Shown piece after piece: positions 5,173 to 44,123 of a DNA stretch of 64,000 nucleotides; positions within the stretch are counted from its first letter, which is position 1, and the number at the start of each line of letters is the position of its first letter. The DNA comes from a virus. Taxonomy: Duplodnaviria > Caudoviricetes. The position numbers and the translations under genes were made by a program. The stretch is taken from IMG/VR virus record IMGVR_UViG_3300050343_000159. The stretch is one strand, 5' to 3'. A model generated the notes under the pieces. That model worked only from the letters and a program-made list of their open reading frames with translations, ran no database searches and was not told the origin of the DNA.

Positions 5173-6960
5173 ATGAGTAGGACAAGAGACACTGCGAATA
5201 TTGCTTCGTCTGAAGGGAGATTTACCGGCAGTATTGTCGGTGTCGCTGCTACTTTTAGTGGAAATGTCAGTGTTGGTGGAACACTAACTTCTGATGATGT
5301 AAAGAACATAGATTCAATTGGTCTTAGTACTTTTAGAAGTGGAATTGAAGTTAAACCTGGAACTGCGACTACAGCACTTTTAGTTCAGGGTGATGCTAGA
5401 ATTGTTGGTATTCTAACAGTTGGTACTGCTTCTGTTACGATTGATGGTGAAAATGAAACAATCGGTGTTGGTATTGTTACCATCTCCAATTCTACTATTG
5501 AGATTGGTCCAAATGTTACCATTAACTCTGGTGCAACTGGTATCAACTCAGCACCTAATGTATTCTATGTTGCTAAAGATGGTATTGATACCAACAACGG
5601 AACATCAATTGATAATGCAAAGTTGACTATTGCAAGTGCTGTTTCTGTAGCACAATCAGGTTCAGTCATCAAAGTATTGTCTGGAAACTATGTTGAAAGT
5701 AATCCTATTACACTTCCAGCGTTTGTTGCTGTTGTTGGTGATGACCAAAGAACTGTAAAGGTTCTTCCAAGCAATACCACACAAGATCTGTTCCATGTCA
5801 ATAAAGGATGTAAGTTAGCTAACATGACCTTCTCCGGTCATCTGGCTCCTTCATCTGCAGTTGCATTCCCAACAGCTGGTGCTACTAATGTTGGTGGTGG
5901 TAAGTGGAAAGGTCCATACATCCAGAACTGTACTAGTGACACCACTACTGGAACTGGTATCTTAATTGACGGAGATAAGGCAGTCAAAACTAAATCGATG
6001 AATGTTGATGCATTCACTCAGTACAATCAAGGAGGAGTTGGAGTTGCTGTTACTAATGAAGGATATGCTCAGTTAGTTTCTGTATTCACAATTTGTTGTG
6101 ATAAAGCAATAACTGTCCATAAAGGTGGTCAAGCTGATGTTGCTAATAGTAATTGTAGTTTTGGAACATTTGGATTAGTTGCTGATGGGGTAAGTCCTCA
6201 ACAGTATACTGGTGTTGTAACAAGTTCTGGAGCAGTTGGTCAAGATAATATTGTGATCAACATTGGTGCTGCCACAACCAGGCCATATGACGGTCAAGTT
6301 GTTTATTTTGATCAACTCTATAAGTCTATAGAATCAATTACAATCACGAATGGTGGAAGTGGATATACATCTACTCCATCGGTTACGATCGCATCCCCCA
6401 CAGGTCCAAATGGAGAGGTAGCTACATCGTTTGTTACTCTAGAAGATGGTGTGGTTACTGAGATTACCATCATCAGTAGTGGAAGTCAATATACATCCAC
6501 TCCAGTTGTTACCATCTCTGCTCCAGATTCAGGTACAACCGCCACTGCAACAGCTGTTATGGCAGATACCTATTACACGATAAATAGCTCGACTCCTATC
6601 ACCGCTGGTATAACTACATTAACACTTGCTGAAAATCTACTCAACACAGTGGGGGTAGCATCTACGGCATACTTCTTCCAACAAAGTAAAATCATCGCTA
6701 GTTCTCATACCTTTGAGTATATCGGTTCTGGTAATGATATTACTACAGCAACACCTAAAAGAGGTGGAGTTACAATCCAAGCAAACGAAGTTGTATCTAC
6801 AAATGGTGGAAGTGTAATTTATACTAGTACTGACCAATCTGGCAATTTCAGAATTGGCGATGACTTCCAAATCAATCAGGCAACTGGAACAGTTAGTGGT
6901 AGAGCATTCTCCAAAAGTCTGTTCTCAGAAATGACCCCTTTCATTCTAGCACTTAGTTAA
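5173..6960 (+). CDS. Virion structural protein with beta-helix-like and ITNGGSGYTSTP repeat domains
   Basis: FYVAKDGIDTNNGTSIDNAKLTIASA (pectin-lyase-like start motif) and two xGSxYTSTPxVTI repeats. Confidence 0.7.
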   Translation: MSRTRDTANIASSEGRFTGSIVGVAATFSGNVSVGGTLTSDDVKNIDSIGLSTFRSGIEVKPGTATTALLVQGDARIVGILTVGTASVTIDGENETIGVGIVTISNSTIEIGPNVTINSGATGINSAPNVFYVAKDGIDTNNGTSIDNAKLTIASAVSVAQSGSVIKVLSGNYVESNPITLPAFVAVVGDDQRTVKVLPSNTTQDLFHVNKGCKLANMTFSGHLAPSSAVAFPTAGATNVGGGKWKGPYIQNCTSDTTTGTGILIDGDKAVKTKSMNVDAFTQYNQGGVGVAVTNEGYAQLVSVFTICCDKAITVHKGGQADVANSNCSFGTFGLVADGVSPQQYTGVVTSSGAVGQDNIVINIGAATTRPYDGQVVYFDQLYKSIESITITNGGSGYTSTPSVTIASPTGPNGEVATSFVTLEDGVVTEITIISSGSQYTSTPVVTISAPDSGTTATATAVMADTYYTINSSTPITAGITTLTLAENLLNTVGVASTAYFFQQSKIIASSHTFEYIGSGNDITTATPKRGGVTIQANEVVSTNGGSVIYTSTDQSGNFRIGDDFQINQATGTVSGRAFSKSLFSEMTPFILALS

Positions 6961-31744: not shown

Positions 31745-32271
31745 TGAACATTTTCGTTACTGACCCTGACCCTATCAAGTCTGCTCAAGTCCTTCCTGAC
31801 AAACACATTGTCAAGATGCCACTTGAGACTTGTCAGATGTTGGCTATTGTCTGTTCTGACAAATGGGGTCATGGGTTTGGTCAACTCCATCGTCAAGATG
31901 GTGAACCATACAAGACAGAGAAAGGTGCATTCCGTAACCATCCCTGTACTGTGTGGGCTAACTCTTTTGTGATGAACTGGCAGTGGCTCCTTCGCCACGG
32001 TCTTGCTCTCTGTGATGAGTACAAGAACCGTTATGGTAAGGAACACACTTGTCTGCAACCACTACAAGAAGCTCGTATCATACTCCCCACTGGAGACCCT
32101 ACAGGACGGTCTGGCAAAGATACCACACCGTTCGTTAGAGCTATGCCTGATGAGTTCAAACTAGATACTAGTATCTCAACCTTTGATGCATACAAGATGT
32201 ACATTGGTTCTAAACCGTGGGTATCTGACAACTACCTTCGTATTCCTGATCGTAAACCTGAATGGGTATGA
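31744..32271 (+). CDS. Pyrimidine-dimer DNA glycosylase-like protein
   Basis: MNIF...DKHIVKMPLETCQML...HPCTVW...LCDEYKNRYGKEH. Confidence 0.8.
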   Translation: MNIFVTDPDPIKSAQVLPDKHIVKMPLETCQMLAIVCSDKWGHGFGQLHRQDGEPYKTEKGAFRNHPCTVWANSFVMNWQWLLRHGLALCDEYKNRYGKEHTCLQPLQEARIILPTGDPTGRSGKDTTPFVRAMPDEFKLDTSISTFDAYKMYIGSKPWVSDNYLRIPDRKPEWV

Positions 32272-32960
32272 ATGAAATCTTAAAAGGAAAAGTAAAAACA
32301 CTTTTCGAAACAGACAATCCTGAAGAAGTGATTATTCGTTATGAGGATTGTGTAACTGCTGGAAACGGACAGATGATTGAATACCCAAAAGGAAAGGGTA
32401 CAGTCTGTTGTTTGATGACAGCAATGTTGTTTGAGTATCTTGAAAGTAACTCAATCAGAACACACTTTATTGATTGTCCTTCATTGGATACTATGAGGTG
32501 TAAGAAACTAAAGATCGCTCCTGTGGAAGTTATCTGTAGGAACATCGCAGCTGGTTCTATTGTAAAAACTACAAATATCACTGAGGGTTTCCTTATTCAA
32601 CCTCCCATCATTGAGTTCTTTCTCAAGGATGATAGTAAGAATGATCCCTTACTCACACCAGATCGTGTGAAGTTGATGGGTATTGATACAGAACCACTGA
32701 TTGAAAAGGCTCGCAATGTTAACGATCTGCTACAACCACTCTTCTTATTGTGTGGTATTGACCTAGTTGACTTTAAACTGGAGTTTGGGTATGACGCCCA
32801 TGGTGATCTCTTCTTGGCTGATGAATTGTCACCAGATAACATGAGGTTATGGAGTAAAGACAGAACAGAACGGTTCGATAAGGACTTGTTCCGTAAGGGA
32901 GAAGGTGATATAGTAGAAGCCTACAAGATTATTTTGACAAAACTGAGGCAGTTTGTATGA
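32268..32960 (+). CDS. purC: SAICAR synthetase
   Basis: GKVK, PVEVICRNIAAGS, EFFLKDD, LVDFKLEFG, LADELSPDNMRLW, FDKDLFR. Confidence 0.93.
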   Translation: MNEILKGKVKTLFETDNPEEVIIRYEDCVTAGNGQMIEYPKGKGTVCCLMTAMLFEYLESNSIRTHFIDCPSLDTMRCKKLKIAPVEVICRNIAAGSIVKTTNITEGFLIQPPIIEFFLKDDSKNDPLLTPDRVKLMGIDTEPLIEKARNVNDLLQPLFLLCGIDLVDFKLEFGYDAHGDLFLADELSPDNMRLWSKDRTERFDKDLFRKGEGDIVEAYKIILTKLRQFV

Positions 32961-35009: not shown

Positions 35010-35017
35010 ATAAGACT

Positions 35018-35093
35018 GAGACTCTTTTCGTGCGGTCTCTACGAAAGTCGGAAACCCGAAACCCCAGAGGTGCTTGACACTTCTGGGGTTTTT
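35018..35093 (+). ncRNA. Candidate small RNA: H-type pseudoknot followed by terminator hairpin
   Basis: TAAATA at 35007-35012; GAGAC/GTCTC and TTTCGT/ACGAAA interleaved pairings; AAACCCCAGAGGTG/CACTTCTGGGGTTT hairpin plus T-tract. Confidence 0.4.
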
Positions 35094-35102
35094 CCTTATA
35101 AT
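35074..35102 (+). promoter_or_regulatory. Consensus sigma70 promoter driving the inserted cassette
   Basis: TTGACA-17 nt-TATAAT; the -35 box lies in the loop and stem of the terminator hairpin. Confidence 0.8.
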
Positions 35103-35123
35103 GGGTTTCTATAGAATAAACCA

Positions 35124-35729
35124 ATGGAAGTCCAAGCACACGGCAACGTTTATGAAGATTGCGTTATTCGTGAAAGAACTGACATGTCTAAGGATCAGTA
35201 TGATGCACTGAAACCCAATGGATATACTTCTGAGTTTGATTTATCTAAGGGTCTTGTAGTTGACTACAACGGCAGTATCAAAACTACTAAGAACAATACT
35301 ATTTGTTGTTCAGATGTTGTCCGTAAGATGACACATAATAACTATCGTCTTATTGTTGGTCAGTATACTCAGGTAGGTAAAGAGAAAGTATTTCATACTG
35401 AGTATGAGTTCTTTATTACTCCAGACGATGATAAGGCACTCTGGGGTCAGATGGACATTCAAGAAGTACGTGAGTTTGTTGACTATGTAAAGAGCATTCC
35501 TTCTGGTAAGGAAGCACAATTAAGCACTAAGTCTCAACGTCAAACACTTCAAAAACAAGCACAAGACAAAAGTGCATTGTTCAAACTCAATCCAAAGGTT
35601 GATAGTAAGAAACAACGTCGTGTTCAATGTTCACTTCACATTAACAAACTGATTGCTGCTGGTGTAAAATATACAAAGAAAGATATCAATTACACTGTAG
35701 TTTCTGCACCCCGTAAGTTTAATAAATGA
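35124..35729 (+). CDS. Putative type II restriction endonuclease (PD-(D/E)xK-like)
   Basis: QAHGNVYE helix, FD...SIKT putative catalytic motif; coupled to a methyltransferase. Confidence 0.5.
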   Translation: MEVQAHGNVYEDCVIRERTDMSKDQYDALKPNGYTSEFDLSKGLVVDYNGSIKTTKNNTICCSDVVRKMTHNNYRLIVGQYTQVGKEKVFHTEYEFFITPDDDKALWGQMDIQEVREFVDYVKSIPSGKEAQLSTKSQRQTLQKQAQDKSALFKLNPKVDSKKQRRVQCSLHINKLIAAGVKYTKKDINYTVVSAPRKFNK

Positions 35730-36235
35730 GAGCATTCTGTCCACCTAAAAATACTCCCGACAAGGATATTGTCATGACGCCAGAATATCTGGCAGTCGAG
35801 ATTATCAATCATTTTGCACCAACTGGTGTCATTCTTGATCCTAGTCACGGGGGACAGGTGCTTTCTATGATAACTTTAACACTGATAATAAACGAGTGGT
35901 GTGAACTTGCAGAGGATAAAGACTTTCTAACTTACAATAATAAAGTAGATTGGATTATCACCAACCCACCATGGAGTTTGATGCAAAAATTCCTTGCACA
36001 TGGTATGGAGATTGCTGATAATATTGTGTATCTCACAACTATCAATCACTACACTACAAAACGTAGGATTCGTGATATGTGTAAATCAGGTTTTGCATTA
36101 AAAGAGATATACAATGTTCCTACACCTACGAAACCTTGGCCTCAATTAGGGTTCCAACTTGCTGCTGTTCATACTCAACGTGGATGGGATGGTGATATTA
36201 AGTTTAGTTATTCTACCAACAGTATGATGTATTGA
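35726..36235 (+). CDS. DNA amino-methyltransferase (N6A/N4C)
   Basis: WIITNPPW motif IV; motif I (LDPS-GTGAFYDNF) is recoverable in an alternative frame between two compensating indels at about 35845-35890. Confidence 0.8.
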   Translation: MRAFCPPKNTPDKDIVMTPEYLAVEIINHFAPTGVILDPSHGGQVLSMITLTLIINEWCELAEDKDFLTYNNKVDWIITNPPWSLMQKFLAHGMEIADNIVYLTTINHYTTKRRIRDMCKSGFALKEIYNVPTPTKPWPQLGFQLAAVHTQRGWDGDIKFSYSTNSMMY

Positions 36236-36323
36236 ATAAATGTAGTATAATTATTGAGTTACTAAATAACACTGAGATTTGATAAGTCAGATCTTATAAC
36301 CCTATAATTTTGGAGATTCCAAG

Positions 36324-37499
36324 ATGGCAAAAAAATTAAAGTGGGGAGCTTTCTCCACGGATGAATTGTCTCTAGACAGAGATGATGATATTTTCATTGA
36401 TTTTCCTTTCCTTGAATATGTTGGAATGGAAATGAATAACGTGAACGAATTTAGTGTTGGTGATAACACAGTTCGTGGAACTAAAGATACAGTATCTCAA
36501 AAGATTGTAGGACTGTCTGGATCACTTCCTGGTGGATGGGAACGTACATCTTGGCCAATCCCCTTTCTTCCTGATAAAAAAACAACTAATGTTAAGAATA
36601 AAATAGCATTTGATCGTCGTCACACTCTTAAGGTTTGTCGATTACTTCCTGGAATTAAGCAAGTTCCCTCAGCAGAATATAAGAGAGTTTTTCCATCTTT
36701 TGGTGGAGTTATCAATTCTTTTAGTGACCATTCAATTCTCACCATGGGTGCAATGTGGGGAAATGTGCATGGTCCTACCAAAGATGATACAAGGGATCAT
36801 ATGTTTGAGATTGCTTGTGCAAGTATTCTAAAAGATGAAAATAATTTACATGAAGAAGATCTTCTCACTAGAGATTTTGTGAAAAGAATTCTTACTTACA
36901 TGAGTTGTTATGATCGGTATAACAACAATAATACTGTTGTAGAGAGAATTGTAACTAAGATATTGGATTCTTTGAGAGATCCTGAAACAGTTTCTGGAAG
37001 ATTGTCACAAAATATCAATCAAGAAGACCTTGATAATTTTATTAATGAGTCTGATGATTGGCAACCACATAATACAGAGAACGACAAATATAAGTTTGTA
37101 GTGGTTCCCCTCCAAGATAATCCCAGTTTTTGCTTCACTTATGCCGAAAGGATTCTTACAACCGTGTGTAAGAATGAGGCAGAGGCAACACAGGTAACTG
37201 TTGAAGGAACTTTACCACCAAAAATTACAAGAGTATTACTCTGGAACGGAACTAATCCTTCTCCTCAAAAAATTGTTGCATCACGTCAAAAGTTCAAAAA
37301 ACAACTTAACATTTCCTGGCAAACAAGAAGAGATAATGTTCTTAAAACTATTGAGAATATTTTGAATCCCACTATTATTGATAATTATCGGAAAAAACTT
37401 TCTGATTTGAATATGGAAATTTGGTGTATGAATCAAATTGATGATGAGAATGAACCATTTGAAATGTGTTTTGAAGATGAGGTGTGTGAACCCGAATAA
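36324..37499 (+). CDS. Hypothetical protein, possible ParB/Srx-like N-terminal domain
   Basis: 391-aa clean ORF; FDRRHTL resembles the ParB-like (I/V)DGxHR motif (weak). Confidence 0.6.
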   Translation: MAKKLKWGAFSTDELSLDRDDDIFIDFPFLEYVGMEMNNVNEFSVGDNTVRGTKDTVSQKIVGLSGSLPGGWERTSWPIPFLPDKKTTNVKNKIAFDRRHTLKVCRLLPGIKQVPSAEYKRVFPSFGGVINSFSDHSILTMGAMWGNVHGPTKDDTRDHMFEIACASILKDENNLHEEDLLTRDFVKRILTYMSCYDRYNNNNTVVERIVTKILDSLRDPETVSGRLSQNINQEDLDNFINESDDWQPHNTENDKYKFVVVPLQDNPSFCFTYAERILTTVCKNEAEATQVTVEGTLPPKITRVLLWNGTNPSPQKIVASRQKFKKQLNISWQTRRDNVLKTIENILNPTIIDNYRKKLSDLNMEIWCMNQIDDENEPFEMCFEDEVCEPE

Positions 37500-37604: not shown

Positions 37605-38048
37605 ATGACTACACTAGCACGCTACAACTCTGCAAACATCAACCAACTGATGGAACGTTTGCAACGAAACACGATCGGTATGGATGATTATTTTGATCGT
37701 GTATTCAGCTACGAAGCACAAAGCTATCCCCCATATAACCTCGTTCAGGTTTCTGAGGATGAGTCCCGTCTAGAACTGGCTCTAGCAGGTTTCAGTCAGG
37801 ATGAGGTAAAGGTCTACACTGAGAAGGGTTATCTGGTTATTGAGGGACAGAAGGAGAGCTCAGACGGACGGGAGTATATCCACCGTGGTCTGGCATCACG
37901 TTCCTTCACTCGTTCCTGGTCTATCTCAGAAGACACTGAAGTCTCTGATGTAAACTTTGAGAATGGTCTTCTGGTAGTAACACTGGCGCGAGTTATTCCT
38001 GAGAACCGCCGCCGTCGTTATCTTATGGGAGGTGCCGACACTAAATAA
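37605..38048 (+). CDS. hsp20: Small heat shock protein Hsp20
   Basis: YPPYNL, LELALAGF, YIHRGLASRSFTRSW, FENGLLVV; AAGGAG RBS. Confidence 0.95.
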   Translation: MTTLARYNSANINQLMERLQRNTIGMDDYFDRVFSYEAQSYPPYNLVQVSEDESRLELALAGFSQDEVKVYTEKGYLVIEGQKESSDGREYIHRGLASRSFTRSWSISEDTEVSDVNFENGLLVVTLARVIPENRRRRYLMGGADTK

Positions 38049-38064
38049 TCTATATCGTCGCCGC

Positions 38065-38108
38065 GGGAGGCACCTGGTCAGTAATCAGGTTGCCCTCCCC
38101 CTTTTTTT
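38065..38108 (+). terminator. Long GC-rich hairpin plus T7 tract after hsp20
   Basis: GGGAGGCACCTG / CAGGTTGCCCTCCC then TTTTTTT. Confidence 0.7.
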
Positions 38109-38139
38109 GCACTATAATAATAGGAGATACTGTCTGAAT

Positions 38140-38286
38140 ATGGCAACCCGTACATACAAGAAAATCGATAGTAAAGGTCGTGAAGAAACTTGGGAGTGGG
38201 AAGAAACTCCTGAAGTTGTGGCAGCAGTCAAACAACTTCATGCCACTATCGCACAAAACAAACTGAGACTCGAAGAACTAAAATGA
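38140..38286 (+). CDS. Small hypothetical protein (48 aa)
   Basis: AGGAG RBS; MATRTYKKIDSKGREETWEW. Confidence 0.55.
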   Translation: MATRTYKKIDSKGREETWEWEETPEVVAAVKQLHATIAQNKLRLEELK

Positions 38287-38645
38287 CTGTAAAAGTAGTA
38301 TTACTCAAATCAGGTGAAGACATCATCGCTGATGTTGAGGAGATGATCGTAGGCGAACCCGCAAAGGTAGTTGGATATTTCTTTAACTATCCTTGTTCTG
38401 TAAAACTTCTAGGCAATGAACCTGTGAAGGATAGAAAGAGTTCTCCCTTCAAGCTTCGTATCACACCATGGGCACCACTTTCTAAGGATCAAAAGATTCC
38501 TGTGGTAGCAGATTGGATTGTCAGTATTATGGAACCCATCGATGATCTTCTAGATATGTACACAACAAGTATTAAAGACTATGAACAAAGACAATCTAAA
38601 ACTACTAGTTCTACCGACGAATCAGATTCTACTGACTCAGATTGA
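38283..38645 (+). CDS. Conserved cyanophage hypothetical protein
   Basis: VVLLKSGEDIIADVEE; usual position between hsp20 and g43. Confidence 0.75.
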   Translation: MTVKVVLLKSGEDIIADVEEMIVGEPAKVVGYFFNYPCSVKLLGNEPVKDRKSSPFKLRITPWAPLSKDQKIPVVADWIVSIMEPIDDLLDMYTTSIKDYEQRQSKTTSSTDESDSTDSD

Positions 38646-38844
38646 AGAAGCTGGTGGTGATATCGGTGAACCTGATTGTAGGTTGGTTGAACCTTTTGTA
38701 GTGAATGGTGATGGAACTCTGGCTCCATGGTTAGTTTCTCTTACCAATCAGAACTCATTCATGATTCATTCTGATAAGATCTTGACTATCGTGGAACCTA
38801 ATGGTACACTAGTAGATAAGTACAGCGACCTGGTGAAGGAATGA
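38581..38844 (+). CDS. Conserved cyanophage hypothetical protein
   Basis: EPDCRLVEPF...LAPW...IHSDKILTIVEP. Confidence 0.75.
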   Translation: MNKDNLKLLVLPTNQILLTQIEEAGGDIGEPDCRLVEPFVVNGDGTLAPWLVSLTNQNSFMIHSDKILTIVEPNGTLVDKYSDLVKE

Positions 38845-40301
38845 ACTTTTACGCCAATGTGATTATGGTTGGAAATGATTTCCTCGTTCGTGGTTATGAA
38901 AATGGCAAAAGAGTTCAATACAGAGAAAAGTTCCAACCCACCTTGTTTGTCAAATCAAACAGGGAGAGTGAGTGGAAGACATTGGAAGGTGAGAATGTAG
39001 AGCCCATTCAACCTGGGTATGTTCGTGATTGTCGTGAGTTCTACAAGAAGTATGATGGTGTAGATGGTTTCAAGATCTATGGAAATGATCGATACATCTA
39101 CCAATACATGTCTGAGAAGTTTCCACAAGATGAAATCAAGTGGGACATGTCTAAGATTAAACTTGTTACTATTGATATTGAGGTGAAGTCAGAAGATGGA
39201 TTCCCCTCACCAGACTCTTGTTCGGAGGAGATGCTAACCATCTCTATTCAGGATTACAACACCAAGCAGATTCTTACTTGGGGACGTAAACCTTACACTC
39301 CATCACAAAAGAATGTCACATATTTCCATCATGAAGAAGAAGTGGATATGCTGAGAGCATTCATCAACTGGTGGAATGAAGATCCCCCAGAGGTTATTAC
39401 TGGATGGAACTGTAGGTTGTATGATATTCCATATCTTTGTGGTCGTGTGGATAGGATAATGGGAACCAAAGAGATGAAGAGATTGTCTCCTTGGAATATC
39501 ATTCAACACGATGAGGTATACATCAATGGTAGACCACACAATGTATACAATATTGCAGGTGTAACTACACTTGACTTTATGGATCTCTATAAGAAGTTCA
39601 CCTATGTGAACCGAGAGAGTTATCGATTAGACTTTATTGCAGAAACAGAATTGGGACAGAAGAAGTTGGACCACTCAGAGTTCAACACTTTCAAAGAGTT
39701 CTATGATGGAGACTGGAAGAAGTTTGTAGATTATAACATCGTTGACGTGGAGCTGGTTGATAGGATGGAGGATAAACTTCGTCTGATTGAACTGGTGATT
39801 ACTATGGCATTTGATGCTAAAGTGAACTTTGTTGATCCTATGTTCCAGGTTAGATTGTGGGATACAATCATCTATAACTATCTAAAGAAAAGGAATATTG
39901 TAGTTCCTCAAATGGATAGAACAGACAAGGATTCAAAGTTCGCAGGTGCATATGTTAAAGAACCGGTACCGGGAGTCTATGATTGGGTTGTCAGTTTTGA
40001 CCTTAACTCTCTCTATCCTCATCTTATCATGCAGTATAACATCTCCCCAGAAACTCTCTTGGACGAAAAACATCCAACGGCCACAGTTGATCGAATTCTT
40101 GATGAGACGGTGAACTTTGAAATGTATAAAGACAATGCAGTTTGTGCCAATGGTGCAATGTATCGTAAGGATGTAAAAGGTTTCCTACCTGAGTTGATGG
40201 AGAAGATGTATGCTGAACGTAAGGCATTCAAGGGTAAGATGTTGAAGAGTAAACAGAAACTCGTTGACATTGAAGCTGAAATGAAGAAGAGAGGTTTGTG
40301 A
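38841..40301 (+). CDS. g43: DNA polymerase gp43, N-terminal part (exonuclease domain plus palm motif A)
   Basis: TIDIEV (ExoI), TGWNCRLYD (ExoII), YNIVDV (ExoIII), SFDLNSLYP (motif A); ends in the first fingers helix. Confidence 0.95.
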   Translation: MNFYANVIMVGNDFLVRGYENGKRVQYREKFQPTLFVKSNRESEWKTLEGENVEPIQPGYVRDCREFYKKYDGVDGFKIYGNDRYIYQYMSEKFPQDEIKWDMSKIKLVTIDIEVKSEDGFPSPDSCSEEMLTISIQDYNTKQILTWGRKPYTPSQKNVTYFHHEEEVDMLRAFINWWNEDPPEVITGWNCRLYDIPYLCGRVDRIMGTKEMKRLSPWNIIQHDEVYINGRPHNVYNIAGVTTLDFMDLYKKFTYVNRESYRLDFIAETELGQKKLDHSEFNTFKEFYDGDWKKFVDYNIVDVELVDRMEDKLRLIELVITMAFDAKVNFVDPMFQVRLWDTIIYNYLKKRNIVVPQMDRTDKDSKFAGAYVKEPVPGVYDWVVSFDLNSLYPHLIMQYNISPETLLDEKHPTATVDRILDETVNFEMYKDNAVCANGAMYRKDVKGFLPELMEKMYAERKAFKGKMLKSKQKLVDIEAEMKKRGL

Positions 40302-40564
40302 TGGAATTACCAGAGATCATCAGAAAGAATTCATTTGCTTGTTTTGGTAGTTTAAATGCTTCTGAGAGATCAGTCATCTTAATGGGTGATGATGAGTATC
40401 GTAAATCACTAGACCTTGAGAATGATGATGCTCCCTGTTGGAAGATTCCAAGTAAGGAATCAACAACATTTGTTGGATGGAATCCCCAATGTATTCCAAC
40501 AATTGATTACATAGTATGGAAACTAGAACGCCTTGAAAAAATTACTACAGGAGAAATTCACTAA
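40298..40564 (+). CDS. Hypothetical protein inside the split g43
   Basis: Start overlaps g43A stop; 88 aa. Confidence 0.7.
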   Translation: MMELPEIIRKNSFACFGSLNASERSVILMGDDEYRKSLDLENDDAPCWKIPSKESTTFVGWNPQCIPTIDYIVWKLERLEKITTGEIH

Positions 40565-40764
40565 TGGCATTATCTAATTCAGTTGAAGAGTCACTTAAAG
40601 AAGCATCTGGACATTTACGCAACGCATTATCATTTGCTGCTAGACAAGAAAGACCTGTTGTTTGTGTACAAATTTCTAAGTTGATTAGTGATATTGAAAA
40701 CATCGGTTCTTTTGATAATATTCTTGATACACTCGACAACACAATTGCGGAGATGGAAGACTAA
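40564..40764 (+). CDS. Hypothetical protein inside the split g43
   Basis: TAATG coupling; LRNALSFAARQERP. Confidence 0.7.
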   Translation: MALSNSVEESLKEASGHLRNALSFAARQERPVVCVQISKLISDIENIGSFDNILDTLDNTIAEMED

Positions 40765-41678
40765 TGGATTACAAAACTTCTGGCGTTGATATTGAAAAGG
40801 GAAAAGCATTCGTAGAACATCTTAAAATTATGGCACCTAAAATTGGTGGATTTAATGGAATGTATCCTCTTCCAAAAGGATATGAAAGACCGGTCTTGGT
40901 ATCTGGTGCTGATGGTGTCGGAACTAAGATGAATATCTGTAGGATTGCCTTTGACTACACTACAATTGGAATTGATTTAGTTGCAATGTGTGTCAATGAT
41001 GTAATCTGTAGTGGTGCTAAACCATTGTACTTCTTAGATTATATCTCTACTAAAAATATAAACTCTAGTGTCAATGAAATTGTATCTGGAATTGTCAAAG
41101 GATGTGAGATTTCTGGAATGGACCTTCTAGGTGGAGAGACTGCAGAACATTTCAGAGCAACTGATTATGACCTTGCTGGTTTTGTACTGGTATTGTAGAG
41201 AAATATGAGATTGTTAATGGTAGTAGTATCCGAGCTGGTGATGTAGTCATTGGTATTGAGAGTAGTGGTCTTCATAGTAATGGATACACTCTTATCAATG
41301 ATATGTTGAGTAAACATAAAATCTTCTATAAAGGATATGCCAGAGTTGTTAACACCAACTACAATCTATTCTCCTTTGATTCAATATCTTTTGGATCAAG
41401 TTCCTATTCTTGGTATGGCACACATCACAGGTGGTGGTATTCCCGAAAATCTTCCTAGGTGTCTCCCCGAAGGATTGAGTGCAAATGTTGATTACAATTC
41501 TTGGGAAAGACCAGAACTCTTTGATAAGATACAAAAAGCTGGTGATATCACTGAAGAGGAGATGAAAAACGTATTCAATCTTGGTATCGGATTCTGTTTG
41601 GTTGTTCCACCAGATGTGGTAGAATTGACTCAATCACTTATTAGTATGAAGTCCTGGGTCATCGGAGTAGTTGAATGA
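40764..41678 (+). CDS. purM: Phosphoribosylformylglycinamidine cyclo-ligase (AIR synthase); two homopolymer indels
   Basis: [56 protein letters not shown]; breaks at about 41180 (T-run) and 41330 (A-run). Confidence 0.92.
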
Positions 41679-41953
41679 AGTTTAAAGCATTAGTATTCAT
41701 CCGACTACGATCACAGGTTGATGATTCGCCAGGTAATGCTGTGAGAGATTGCTGTAAAAGAATGTCTGAGTTAGACATCAAGAAACTTAGACTTGGTAAG
41801 GTCATTGATGTTTGGTTGGAAGCAGAGAGTAGAGAGTATGCTGAGAAGGAACTCGAAATGCTATCGGATAGATTTCTTGCTAATAAAGTTATGGAAGACT
41901 GGGATTATGAATTGACTGAGATTGAAAACTTTCCTAAAGGTATTGAGGAATAA
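41675..41953 (+). CDS. purS: FGAM synthase subunit PurS
   Basis: VDDSPGNAV...RLGKVIDV...LANKVMEDW. Confidence 0.85.
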   Translation: MKFKALVFIRLRSQVDDSPGNAVRDCCKRMSELDIKKLRLGKVIDVWLEAESREYAEKELEMLSDRFLANKVMEDWDYELTEIENFPKGIEE

Positions 41954-43113
41954 TGGGATATCTAATCGGTGGTGCTGGTGAAGGTGTAGAAGAGGAGATC
42001 GTACAATCTGGTAAAGACTATTCTAAACTGTCTGATAGAGAACTTCTAAGTCTCAGGGATCAGACAGTAAAGGATGTTGCTAAGTTCAATAACTTTCAGA
42101 TGGTGAGAAAGATTTGTTTGAACTCAGCTTATGGTGCGGTTGGTAACCAATACTTCAGATACTTCAAACTTGCAAATGCAGAAGCTATCACTCTGTCAGG
42201 TCAAACATCTATCAGGTGGATTGAGGATAGGTTAAACAAGTATCTGAATGAACTCCTAAAGACTGATAGTGATTATGTTATTGCCGTTGATACTGATTCT
42301 GTATACCTTAACCTTGGTCCTCTTGTTGATAAGTTCCTAGCAAAACAGAAGGATGATAAGGAGAAGGTGGTGAACCTTTTGGATAAGGTTTGTCAAGACA
42401 AGTTAGAACCTTTTATTGACGACTGTTATGTGAAACTGGCTGACTATGTGAATGCATATGATCAGAAGATGCAGATGAAGAGAGAAAATATTGCTGATCG
42501 TGGTATTTGGACCGCCAAGAAAAGATACATTCTTAATGTGTGGGATAGTGAGGGTGTTCGTTATGAAGAACCCAAACTCAAGATCATGGGTATTGAGGCT
42601 GTCAAATCATCTACACCCGCTCCCTGTAGGAAGATGATTAAGGATGGTCTCCGAGTGATGATGGAAGGAACTGAGGATGAGATGATTAAGTTTATCGATG
42701 AGGCTAGAATTAAGTTCAATAAACTATCGGTAGCCGAGTTGTCATTTCCCCGTTCTATTTCTGATGTAAATAAACACAAGAGCCATACAACCATCTATGG
42801 AAAGGGTTGTCCTATCCATGTGAGAGGTTCGCTACTTCATAACCACTACATTAAAGAGAGAGGTTTGGATAACAAGTATTCTCTTATCAATAATGGTGAT
42901 AAGATTAAGTTTGTTTATCTTAAGAAAGCCAATCCTATTCGTGAGAATGTGATTTCATTCTTGAATGATTTCCCGTATGAACTCGGACTTGATAAGTATA
43001 TTGATTATGAGTTACAATTCAACAAAGCCTTCCTTGAACCTGTAAAGGTCATTCTTGATTCCATTGGATGGAATGTTGAGAAAGTTGCAAACCTAGAGTT
43101 ATTTTTTAGTTAA
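41953..43113 (+). CDS. g43: DNA polymerase gp43, C-terminal part (motifs B and C, thumb)
   Basis: RKICLNSAYGAVGN (motif B), VDTDS (motif C), AKKRYIL, KIMGIEAVKSSTP, C-terminal clamp-binding NLELFF. Confidence 0.95.
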   Translation: MGYLIGGAGEGVEEEIVQSGKDYSKLSDRELLSLRDQTVKDVAKFNNFQMVRKICLNSAYGAVGNQYFRYFKLANAEAITLSGQTSIRWIEDRLNKYLNELLKTDSDYVIAVDTDSVYLNLGPLVDKFLAKQKDDKEKVVNLLDKVCQDKLEPFIDDCYVKLADYVNAYDQKMQMKRENIADRGIWTAKKRYILNVWDSEGVRYEEPKLKIMGIEAVKSSTPAPCRKMIKDGLRVMMEGTEDEMIKFIDEARIKFNKLSVAELSFPRSISDVNKHKSHTTIYGKGCPIHVRGSLLHNHYIKERGLDNKYSLINNGDKIKFVYLKKANPIRENVISFLNDFPYELGLDKYIDYELQFNKAFLEPVKVILDSIGWNVEKVANLELFFS

Positions 43114-44123
43114 TGGATTTCCTTAAAGAGATTGTAAAAGAGATTGGAGATGAGTACACCCAACTGGCAGCCGACATCGACGAAACCGAAACTTACGTGG
43201 ACACGGGTTCGTACATCTTTAACGGACTTTGTTCAGGTAGTATATTTGGTGGCGTATCTGGGAATAAGATTACTGCCATTGCTGGGGAGTCTTCTACTGG
43301 AAAGACTTTCTTTAGCTTGGCAGTCGTCAAGAACTTCCTTGATTCTAACCCTGGTGGTTATTGTCTATATTTTGACACTGAAGCCGCTGTTAACAAGTCT
43401 CTTCTTACAAGTAGGGGGATTGACTTAGATCGGTTTGTTGTAGTGAATGTAGTTACTGTTGAACAGTTCAGACAGAAGGCACTACAAGCTGTTGATATCT
43501 ACCTCAAAACACCAGAGGAAGATAGGAAACCATGTATGTTTGTGTTAGACTCTCTGGGTATGTTGTCTACAGAGAAAGAGATTCGTGATGCTCTTGATGA
43601 TAAACAGGTTCGGGACATGACTAAATCACAGTTAGTCAAAGGAGCCTTCAGAATGTTAACCCTGAAGTTGGGACAGGCTAAAATCCCAATGATTGTTACT
43701 AACCACACCTACGATGTTATCGGATCTTATGTCCCGACTAAGGAAATGGGAGGCGGCAGCGGCCTCAAGTATGCCGCGTCTACGATCATTTATCTCAGCA
43801 AGAAAAAAGAAAAGGATGGAACGGCTATTGTCGGAAACCTTATCAAGGCTAAAACAGCAAAGTCAAGACTTAGTAAAGAAAATAAAGACGTAACAGTTCG
43901 TCTCTATTATGATGAGAGAGGATTGGACAAATACTATGGTCTCCTTGAGTTAGGAGAAGTTGGTGGTATGTGGAAGAATGTGGCAGGTAGATATGAAATG
44001 GATGGTAAAAAAATATATGCAAAAGAGATTCTTAAGAATCCAGATAAGTATTTTACACAGGAAGTTTTAGAACAGTTAGATGAAATCGCGAAAGAACAAT
44101 TCTCCTATGGTTCAAGTATTTGA
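43113..44123 (+). CDS. uvsX: RecA-like recombinase UvsX
   Basis: AGESSTGKT, VLDSLGML, GGGSGLKYAAS. Confidence 0.96.
   Translation: MDFLKEIVKEIGDEYTQLAADIDETETYVDTGSYIFNGLCSGSIFGGVSGNKITAIAGESSTGKTFFSLAVVKNFLDSNPGGYCLYFDTEAAVNKSLLTSRGIDLDRFVVVNVVTVEQFRQKALQAVDIYLKTPEEDRKPCMFVLDSLGMLSTEKEIRDALDDKQVRDMTKSQLVKGAFRMLTLKLGQAKIPMIVTNHTYDVIGSYVPTKEMGGGSGLKYAASTIIYLSKKKEKDGTAIVGNLIKAKTAKSRLSKENKDVTVRLYYDERGLDKYYGLLELGEVGGMWKNVAGRYEMDGKKIYAKEILKNPDKYFTQEVLEQLDEIAKEQFSYGSSI

Follow-up and report, generated by a model that had tools for sequence, protein, structure and literature searches.

The stretch analysed here (the window) comprises 64,000 nucleotides of the IMG/VR virus record IMGVR_UViG_3300050343_000159 (Duplodnaviria; Caudoviricetes). 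Its gene 43, for a family B DNA polymerase, is divided between two open reading frames (ORFs), g43A and g43B, by a gap of 1651 nt (~1.65 kb) that holds ORF88, ORF66, purM and purS. Our best explanation, as read from the sequence, is that the replicative polymerase would be made as two separately translated proteins, gp43A and gp43B. The N-terminal domain, the proofreading exonuclease and the first fingers helix, as well as motif A of the palm, would come from gp43A; the second fingers helix (which includes motif B), motif C of the palm, the thumb and the C-terminal tail would come from gp43B. Both proteins would fold non-covalently into one RB69-like enzyme whose active site comes from both chains. 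The break at the fingertip would be an old and widespread allele of marine cyanophages, marked by a conserved tail (...KKRGL) on gp43A and a conserved head (MGYLIGG) on gp43B, and in the lineage of the window a copy of the ORF88-ORF66-purM block of the common cyanophage pur locus, together with purS, would have entered the gap. Probably, a single transcript starting upstream of g43A runs through the cargo, g43B and uvsX, with each ORF started by coupling or from its own ribosome-binding site; the purine and replication genes would then be co-expressed. Taken as a whole (two chains, an old allele, a hot-spot gap, coupling and the purM indels described below), we hold this explanation with high confidence.

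Re-reading of the ORFs and motifs, over the entire locus and its strand, reproduced exactly the coordinates, sequences, motifs and lengths given for the two halves in a preliminary description of this DNA. g43A carries the exonuclease motifs Exo I (DIE, 39174–39182), Exo II (NCRLYD, 39408–39425) and Exo III (YNIVD, 39732–39746), which are invariant in 19 relatives, as well as polymerase motif A (DLNSLYP, 39999–40019), and ends with ...LVDIEAEMKKRGL before its stop. g43B begins with MGYLIGGAGEGVEEEIVQ and carries motif B (KICLNSAYG, 42109–42135) and motif C (DTDS, 42289–42300). The exonuclease and the polymerase motifs A, B and C of a T4/RB69 gp43-type family B enzyme are all present, in two ORFs rather than in a single polypeptide. 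A Pfam search matched g43A to DNA_pol_B_exo1 (E-value 4e-21) and the first third of DNA_pol_B (positions 19–144), and g43B to the remaining part of DNA_pol_B (positions 146–237 and beyond). Aligned with RB69 gp43, g43A corresponds to residues 3–494 (E-value 1.5e-69) and g43B to residues 531–897 (E-value 4e-61). Because residues 494 and 531 fall within the fingers domain, which we take to span residues ~469–572, the break is placed in the fingers-tip loop between two long helices, in agreement with the earlier proposal of a split in the fingers.

The closest polymerase is the intact 845-aa enzyme of Synechococcus phage RN05-S (75% identity). Against this enzyme, g43A ends just past ...LVDIE..., and the first ~27 residues of g43B have no counterpart. 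The segment at the start of g43B had been described as an extra linker, which holds in comparison with intact cyanophage enzymes but not with RB69 gp43, which has ~36 residues at that spot. The tail of gp43A (13 aa) and the head of gp43B (~22 aa) together equal these ~36 residues of the RB69 tip (495–530). The match in length indicates that tail and head are polymerase sequence, that the intact cyanophage enzymes hold a shorter tip, and therefore that the split form is not simply one with a linker added. The stop after g43A residue 486 is kept in relatives, and residues L474, V475, D476, I477, E478, E480, K482 and R484 of the tail are invariant in 19 split relatives. In the head, residues M1–G7 are invariant in 19 diverse carriers despite synonymous codon changes. 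The ratio of nonsynonymous to synonymous substitution rates (dN/dS) was 0.02–0.06 for g43A (against three relatives) and 0.03–0.05 for g43B; on these values, both halves are under strong purifying selection.

The split is shared by many relatives (below, L-numbers are IMG/VR contigs, and X1, X3 and X6 are metagenome contigs or runs). With g43B as the query, the same break was found in 26 of the best 80 IMG/VR loci. Its signature is ...[KR][KR]RG[LIV], sometimes with 1–3 more residues, then the stop, the start of the second half and GYLIGG. A back-translated pattern of the head matched at least 120 IMG/VR contigs, and among the matches listed 105 distinct tail-to-head sequences were left after removal of duplicates; the counts that follow share this scope. 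The halves abut in 76 of the 105 sequences (gap of 12 nt or less, mostly TAATG), and the other 29 hold 100–2871 nt of varied cargo, which strongly supports the earlier suggestion that the split site tolerates cargo. The cargo includes HNH endonuclease genes in L007 and L031 (phrog_374), another homing endonuclease in L072 (phrog_655), a thioredoxin-like gene with small ORFs in L006, DruA-domain genes in L120 and L172, and several families of small ORFs with no assigned function, among them the ACG-2014f gp168 family. Nine sequences hold pur genes in the gap, in differing versions: purM alone (L003/L125 and L119/L143/L173), ORF88-purM-purS (L092), ORF88-ORF66-purM-purS (the window, L191 and L112), the same four genes with two small ORFs (L021), and purS with ORF88 and no purM (L184). 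Metagenome contigs contained a variant without ORF66 and also a different sequence right after the g43A stop. These contents mark the gap as a hot spot for insertion, and the break as a site at which insertions are polymorphic. The new element is the nested purine cassette, the kind of split itself being already known.

The layout is not a misassembly, and a sequencing frameshift had already been argued against from the overlaps of the genes. L191 is colinear with the window over 37769–43681 at 95% identity, the same arrangement is present on L092, L112 and L021, and the independent metagenome contig X3 bridges 40385–42526. A megablast search of 50,697 phage records returned no close relative of the locus; the cargo alone matched, at ~80% identity, in pur loci elsewhere. 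Among these records, the full head was present in 45 ACG-2014f records, and S-CREM2 gave a weak partial match beyond the head only. In ACG-2014f (Atlauavirus), gp167 and gp170, both annotated "DNA polymerase", have the same break, tail and head as the window, and the second half is 70% identical from residue 1. The neighbours are also those of the window (Hsp20, DUF6561 genes, uvsX, 2-oxoglutarate (2OG) oxygenase and gp41), and the gap likewise holds cargo. This cargo differs, consisting of two small ORFs with no assigned function (377 nt) and no pur genes, and the second half apparently starts with ATT. In the complete circular 223-kb genome of ACG-2014f, which is cultured, the two halves are the only family B polymerase (PolB), and therefore a viable phage replicates with the split enzyme. 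Within the 64 kb of the window there is likewise no other PolB, in line with the preliminary description, which had made the absence of an intact second copy a test of the split. The split is a large class of cyanophage alleles, already in GenBank and unremarked; a literature search found no description of a cyanophage gp43 split or of purM nested in gp43, which is not proof that none exists.

Several further observations were made on the relatives. In L001 (ACG-2014f, 5998–6003), L007 (4734) and L031 (2361), the conserved gp43B head begins with ATT, preceded by GAGG or GGAGG, and no in-frame ATG, GTG or TTG lies upstream. In GenBank, ACG-2014f gp170 is annotated from a start at motif B, 50 codons further downstream, which would remove most of the second fingers helix. 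ATT looks like a non-canonical start, with gp170 a mis-annotated coding sequence. The joint 40559/40760 in run X6 suggests a natural variant that is without ORF66 alone, and it matches L092. A second joint in this run, 40285/40764, may reflect a variant with purM placed after g43A through a 15-nt linker; it was seen in one contig with a 30-nt side, which is too weak, and was not counted. In the more distant phages L120 (2852–3916, minus strand) and L172 (3804–4868, minus strand), the fingertip gap contains a gene for a 354-aa protein in which Pfam recognises a DruA domain (Druantia defence; E-values 1e-10 and 3e-9); in L172 it also contains a gene of 498 aa that matches nothing in Pfam. Another split of gp43, different from the first, was found in L049 (3719–7047; also in L050, and probably in L032, L043, L059 and L073). 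There, the first gene ends ~15 residues past motif A (...SPETLVEKHELNNRIAELEKML), followed by a 188-aa HNH endonuclease gene and a 462-aa second half that carries a new helical N-terminus. No Rfam intron was found in the six relatives with this differently placed interruption.

The genes in the gap point to the purine-gene cluster of cyanophages as their source. ORF88 belongs to phrog_1132 (E-value 2e-47; dN/dS 0.17–0.21) and shares 73% identity with the 90-aa ORF located between the purC and purM genes of ACG-2014b. ORF66, which is missing in L092 and in one metagenome variant, belongs to phrog_1179 (E-value 3e-32) and is 74% identical to the 66-aa ORF directly upstream of ACG-2014b purM. PurS matches PF02700 over the whole profile (1–77 of 77, E-value 1e-16) and is 87% identical to its ACG-2014b counterpart (dN/dS 0.04–0.12). 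ORF88, ORF66 and purS are under purifying selection (dN/dS 0.00–0.21). The ORF88-ORF66-purM block is syntenic with the pur loci of ACG-2014b (purS-x-purC-hyp90-hyp66-purM) and S-RIM44, with the same hyp90-hyp66-purM order and a DNA identity of 76–82%. However, in ACG-2014b and S-RIM44 these loci lie among photosynthesis or structural genes, far from gene 43, whereas the block of the window is nested in the polymerase gene; and purS follows purM in the window, whereas purS and purC lie upstream of the block in the other two phages. Judged by synteny and identity, the cargo is a rearranged copy of the standard cyanophage purine-gene cluster. The purC gene of the window (32262–32960; 59% identical to ACG-2014b purC) lies alone, directly upstream of the clamp-loader gene g44; therefore the purine genes of the window are scattered through the replication module rather than gathered in one locus.

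The preliminary description had the insert as four coupled genes including purM and purS. ORF88, ORF66, purS and the overlaps stand, with TGATG at g43A/ORF88, TAATG at ORF88/ORF66 and ORF66/purM, ATGA at purM/purS, and TAATG at purS/g43B and g43B/uvsX. However, purM is not one open gene in the window, and the cargo is three intact genes and a frame-broken purM. In place of a single open frame of ~306–345 aa, purM runs in frame 0 from 40764 to 41198, with a stop at 41196–41198, in another frame over ~41184–41335, and in frame 0 again from 41337 to 41678; Pfam finds AIRS in the first segment and AIRS_C in the last. The gene is intact, at 306–310 aa, in L191, L092, L021 and L003. Relative to L021 and L191 (94–95% identity), the window has 1 nt fewer in the T-run at 41180–41183, and the alignment with L191 places 1 nt more at 41330–41334. 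Contigs of three independent DNA metagenomes all carry the inserted base at 41179–41182; contigs X3 and X6 omit one base at 41330–41334, where X1 has zero depth.

Because both indels are lacking in every relative, the interruption is private to the window sequence, and the indels are explained either by inactivating mutations of very recent date or by sequencing errors within short single-base runs. That purM was truly inactivated by two recent mutations, and is a fresh pseudogene with no sequencing error, is in our estimate quite possible, somewhat short of an even chance. Both indels are in the given sequence, together with the frame 0 stop, and the natural cargo is fluid: ORF66 is missing in L092, purM is missing in L184, and L003 has purM alone. 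However, the indels are length changes of short single-base runs, as is typical of sequencing error, and they compensate each other exactly. Neither occurs in any contig or metagenome variant examined; part of the depth at the first site is without the inserted base (~200 of 690 in X6 and ~3 of 29 in X1). In addition, the three purM segments each give a dN/dS of 0.06–0.20 in their own frame. Programmed frameshifting was also considered, since a −1 slip at GGT-TTT-G and a +1 shift at AAA-G would restore the protein of the relatives. We rejected it as highly unlikely, because it would take two recoding events within a single metabolic gene, neither of them present in any relative, which is far-fetched.

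For the polymerase itself, a contiguous gp43 would be translated if the cargo lay inside a large self-splicing intron or were otherwise removed from the RNA. Group I introns do occur in phages related to T4, but we regard such a removal here as very improbable. An Rfam scan of 38500–43400, with E-values up to 1, returned no intron family and three chance-level small-RNA matches only, in agreement with the earlier claim that the gap holds no intein, intron or homing endonuclease; no endonuclease was found in it either. In the 76 relatives with abutting halves there is nothing to splice, yet the stop codon and the different frames are kept, and therefore nothing needs splicing. The stop of the first half and the start and head of the second are conserved, and the cargo genes are coupled ORFs under purifying selection. 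No 40301–41953 joint was present among the contigs of an RNA run, which is a weak indication; these contigs cover parts of the cargo only and were not used for expression or its absence.

It is comparably improbable that the split gene is a decaying pseudogene and that another polymerase replicates the phage. The search covered 64 kb, and purM in the same locus is frame-broken. However, dN/dS is as low as given above in both halves, all exonuclease and polymerase motifs are intact, and neither the window nor the complete ACG-2014f genome encodes a PolB other than the two halves. Finally, fractured cyanophage-like replication genes with split inteins do exist (gp41, NrdA and DnaE; PMC2677866), but post-translational joining by an unusual split intein is barely conceivable here, as neither half has an intein or Hint domain in Pfam, a tail of 13 residues and a head of ~22 are too short for intein halves, the tail lacks an initial Cys or Ser, the head does not end in His-Asn followed by Cys, Ser or Thr, and the ~35 residues of tail and head match the RB69 fingertip (495–530) in length.

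Two separately translated halves have a precedent in Aeromonas phages, to which the preliminary description had pointed; the precedent is real, and in phage 44RR2.8t the break is at the same place. As in the window, the T4-type polymerase of 44RR2.8t is encoded by two cistrons of nearly equal sizes (43A and 43B, 498 and 391 aa, against 486 and 386 aa), interrupted in the same loop after the first fingers helix, and no intein is present in either phage. The 43A tail, ...KKILASRGVKLDH, aligns pairwise with ...EAEMKKRGL of the window, so that ...ASRGV... lies against ...KKRGL and the breaks fall within a few residues. The window matches such naturally split gp43 proteins in its fingers-tip break, in halves of ~490 and 390 aa, and in needing neither intein nor splicing. 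In contrast, the halves are 31–38% identical to those of the window, and the 43B head (MELELFRDF...) is unlike MGYLIGG. The gap in 44RR2.8t is a 49-nt untranslated spacer; in Aeromonas phage 25 it is occupied, according to PMC2988022 and PMC2677866, by a gene for a seg-type endonuclease. Neither gap contains metabolic genes. Phages 25 and 31 are also listed with split gp43A/gp43B (Petrov et al. 2006, as cited in PMC2988022 and PMC2677866), and gp43A and gp43B of phage 25 are reported to co-purify and to show polymerase activity (Petrov et al. 2006, as cited in PMC2988022). NrdA of Aeromonas phage Aeh1 (mobE) and the T4 topoisomerase (genes 39 and 60, mobA) are similar in that an essential enzyme is cut at a functionally important region, other genes lie in the gap and activity is rebuilt from the pieces (PMC2988022). 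There, a homing endonuclease in the gap is thought to have caused the split (PMC2988022), whereas the gap of the window has none, although those of its relatives L007, L031 and L072 do.

A model of the gp43A–gp43B complex gave an interaction prediction score from aligned errors (ipSAE) of 0.82, compared with 0.00 for the best of three controls; 58 of 80 solved complexes attain this level, as do 2 of 110 mismatched pairs. Contact agreement between runs was at least 94%, and the predicted local distance difference test (pLDDT) score of the partner was at least 84. In the model, the chains meet in a shared palm sheet (A 377–403 with B 109–122 and 165–190) and in paired fingers helices (A 463–486 with B 16–56), with residues 470–481, 484 and 486 of gp43A in the interface. 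It had been proposed that the halves assemble through extended fingers helices. Both helices indeed take part in the predicted interface, but most of it is formed by the palm. The putative association of the halves, and with it their presumed joint polymerase activity, is indirectly supported by this predicted complex, by the purifying selection and by the viable phage that has the halves only.

Several points weigh against two cooperating chains and their coupled expression. The complex score probably reflects likeness to RB69 gp43, because single-chain structures of that protein have been solved, rather than the binding of the present copies. Residues 1–15 of the invariant gp43B head are not confidently placed in the complex, and an AlphaFold2 model of gp43B alone, built from 19 sequences, was poor (mean pLDDT 49; residues 1–20 of the head below 50) and therefore uninformative on the head. 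For the phage of the window, a second polymerase gene outside the 64 kb searched is possible. On the RNA side, the contigs were assembled from related phages, and a rare spliced form could have escaped them. Furthermore, translational coupling is interrupted ahead of purS and g43B by the broken frame of purM, and the two-chain cyanophage enzyme is known from genes and a predicted structure.

The history of the split was examined by maximum likelihood on 67 polymerases, excluding the tip region. On the resulting tree, the split state requires at least five changes, and forcing the 22 split rows together cost 400 log-likelihood units (approximately unbiased (AU) test, p 3e-27). The 208 junction-proximal residues also reject a single split clade (6 changes; AU p 2e-4), and the distal parts of the polymerase give 8 changes each. 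With 6 changes near the junction against 8 in the distal parts, the data give no clear sign of long conversion tracts. The tail-stop-start-head cassette may pass between polymerase genes in short recombination tracts; alternatively, the split is old and deletions have undone it on several occasions. Such repeated re-fusion fits the shortened tips of the intact cyanophage enzymes, of which there are at least two types. More speculatively, the fingertip break may serve as a conserved, laterally spreading "landing pad", in which the tail-stop-start-head cassette recombines between polymerase genes, perhaps driven by the free-standing HNH endonucleases present in some gaps. Cassettes of metabolic genes, ORF88-ORF66-purM-purS among them, would be exchanged through the gap and, once inserted, be coupled to an essential operon timed with replication. 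We regard this as a tentative and rather unlikely extension.

Features of the split gene 43 locus in the window, with coordinates and strand
Feature	Coordinates	Strand	Description
g43A	38841..40301	+	ORF, 486 aa; N-terminal domain, 3'-5' exonuclease (Exo I–III), palm motif A, first fingers helix
A tail, residues 474–486, LVDIEAEMKKRGL	40260..40298	+	Conserved extension of the first fingers helix directly before the break
ORF88	40301..40564 (ATG 40301, 87 aa) or from GTG 40298 (88 aa)	+	No assigned function; conserved companion of purM in cyanophages
ORF66	40564..40764	+	No assigned function; second conserved companion of purM
purM (aminoimidazole ribonucleotide (AIR) synthetase)	40764..41678	+	Three reading-frame segments in the window sequence
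First purM indel	41180..41183	+	Four T against TTTCT or five T in relatives; 1 nt missing
Second purM indel	41330..41334	+	AAAGG against one base fewer in relatives; 1 nt extra, frame 0 restored
purS (small subunit of formylglycinamidine ribonucleotide (FGAM) synthase)	41675..41953	+	92 aa; stop overlaps the g43B start
GAGGA, Shine-Dalgarno-like element	41945..41949	+	Within the end of purS, 3 nt before the g43B ATG; putative role
g43B	41953..43113	+	ORF, 386 aa; head, second fingers helix with motif B, palm motif C, thumb, C-terminal tail
B head, residues 1–22, begins MGYLIGG	41953..42018	+	MGYLIGG invariant among split relatives; absent from intact cyanophage gp43
uvsX (RecA-like)	43113..44123	+	Pfam RecA; start overlaps the g43B stop (TAATG)

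The overlap with uvsX sets the locus in the context of one tightly coupled replication operon. Hsp20, two DUF6561 genes, uvsX, a 2OG oxygenase gene and gp41 make up the neighbourhood; by these genes and the best matches, the phage is a T4-like cyanomyovirus. No terminator-like site was found on the plus strand over ~37.6–44.3 kb and no TATAAATA late-promoter box in 38–43 kb, and the promoter and terminator scans gave counts at chance level with nothing specific.

The locus adds a widespread marine example of an essential replicase working as two chains, for which a cultured representative, ACG-2014f, exists, and the invariant MGYLIGG head offers a concrete, unexplained target for mutation. It also indicates that auxiliary metabolic genes occur outside the known hyperplastic regions as well, as a purine block can sit inside a polymerase gene. 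With a block nested in this way, purine supply would coincide with DNA synthesis, and the cargo would be tied to a gene that is indispensable to the phage. With its patchy distribution over the polymerase tree and its varied cargo, whose presence at the site had been anticipated and was found in the IMG/VR survey, the split provides a natural system for the entry of genes into phage core modules and their exit. The gp43 gene is a common marker of cyanophages. Gene callers, and surveys based on amplicons or marker genes, will misread split halves, ATT starts and nested cargo.

Directly upstream of g43A lie two DUF6561 paralogues, at 38283–38645 (120 aa) and 38581–38844 (87 aa), which overlap by 65 nt in different frames. 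Relatives keep the pair ahead of gp43, with an annotation as hypothetical. The stretches of the window at 35014–37491, which spans a candidate restriction-modification pair and a 391-aa gene, and at 38142–38278 are both missing from the relative L092 (94–96% identity), and are therefore recent insertions or deletions in the lineage.

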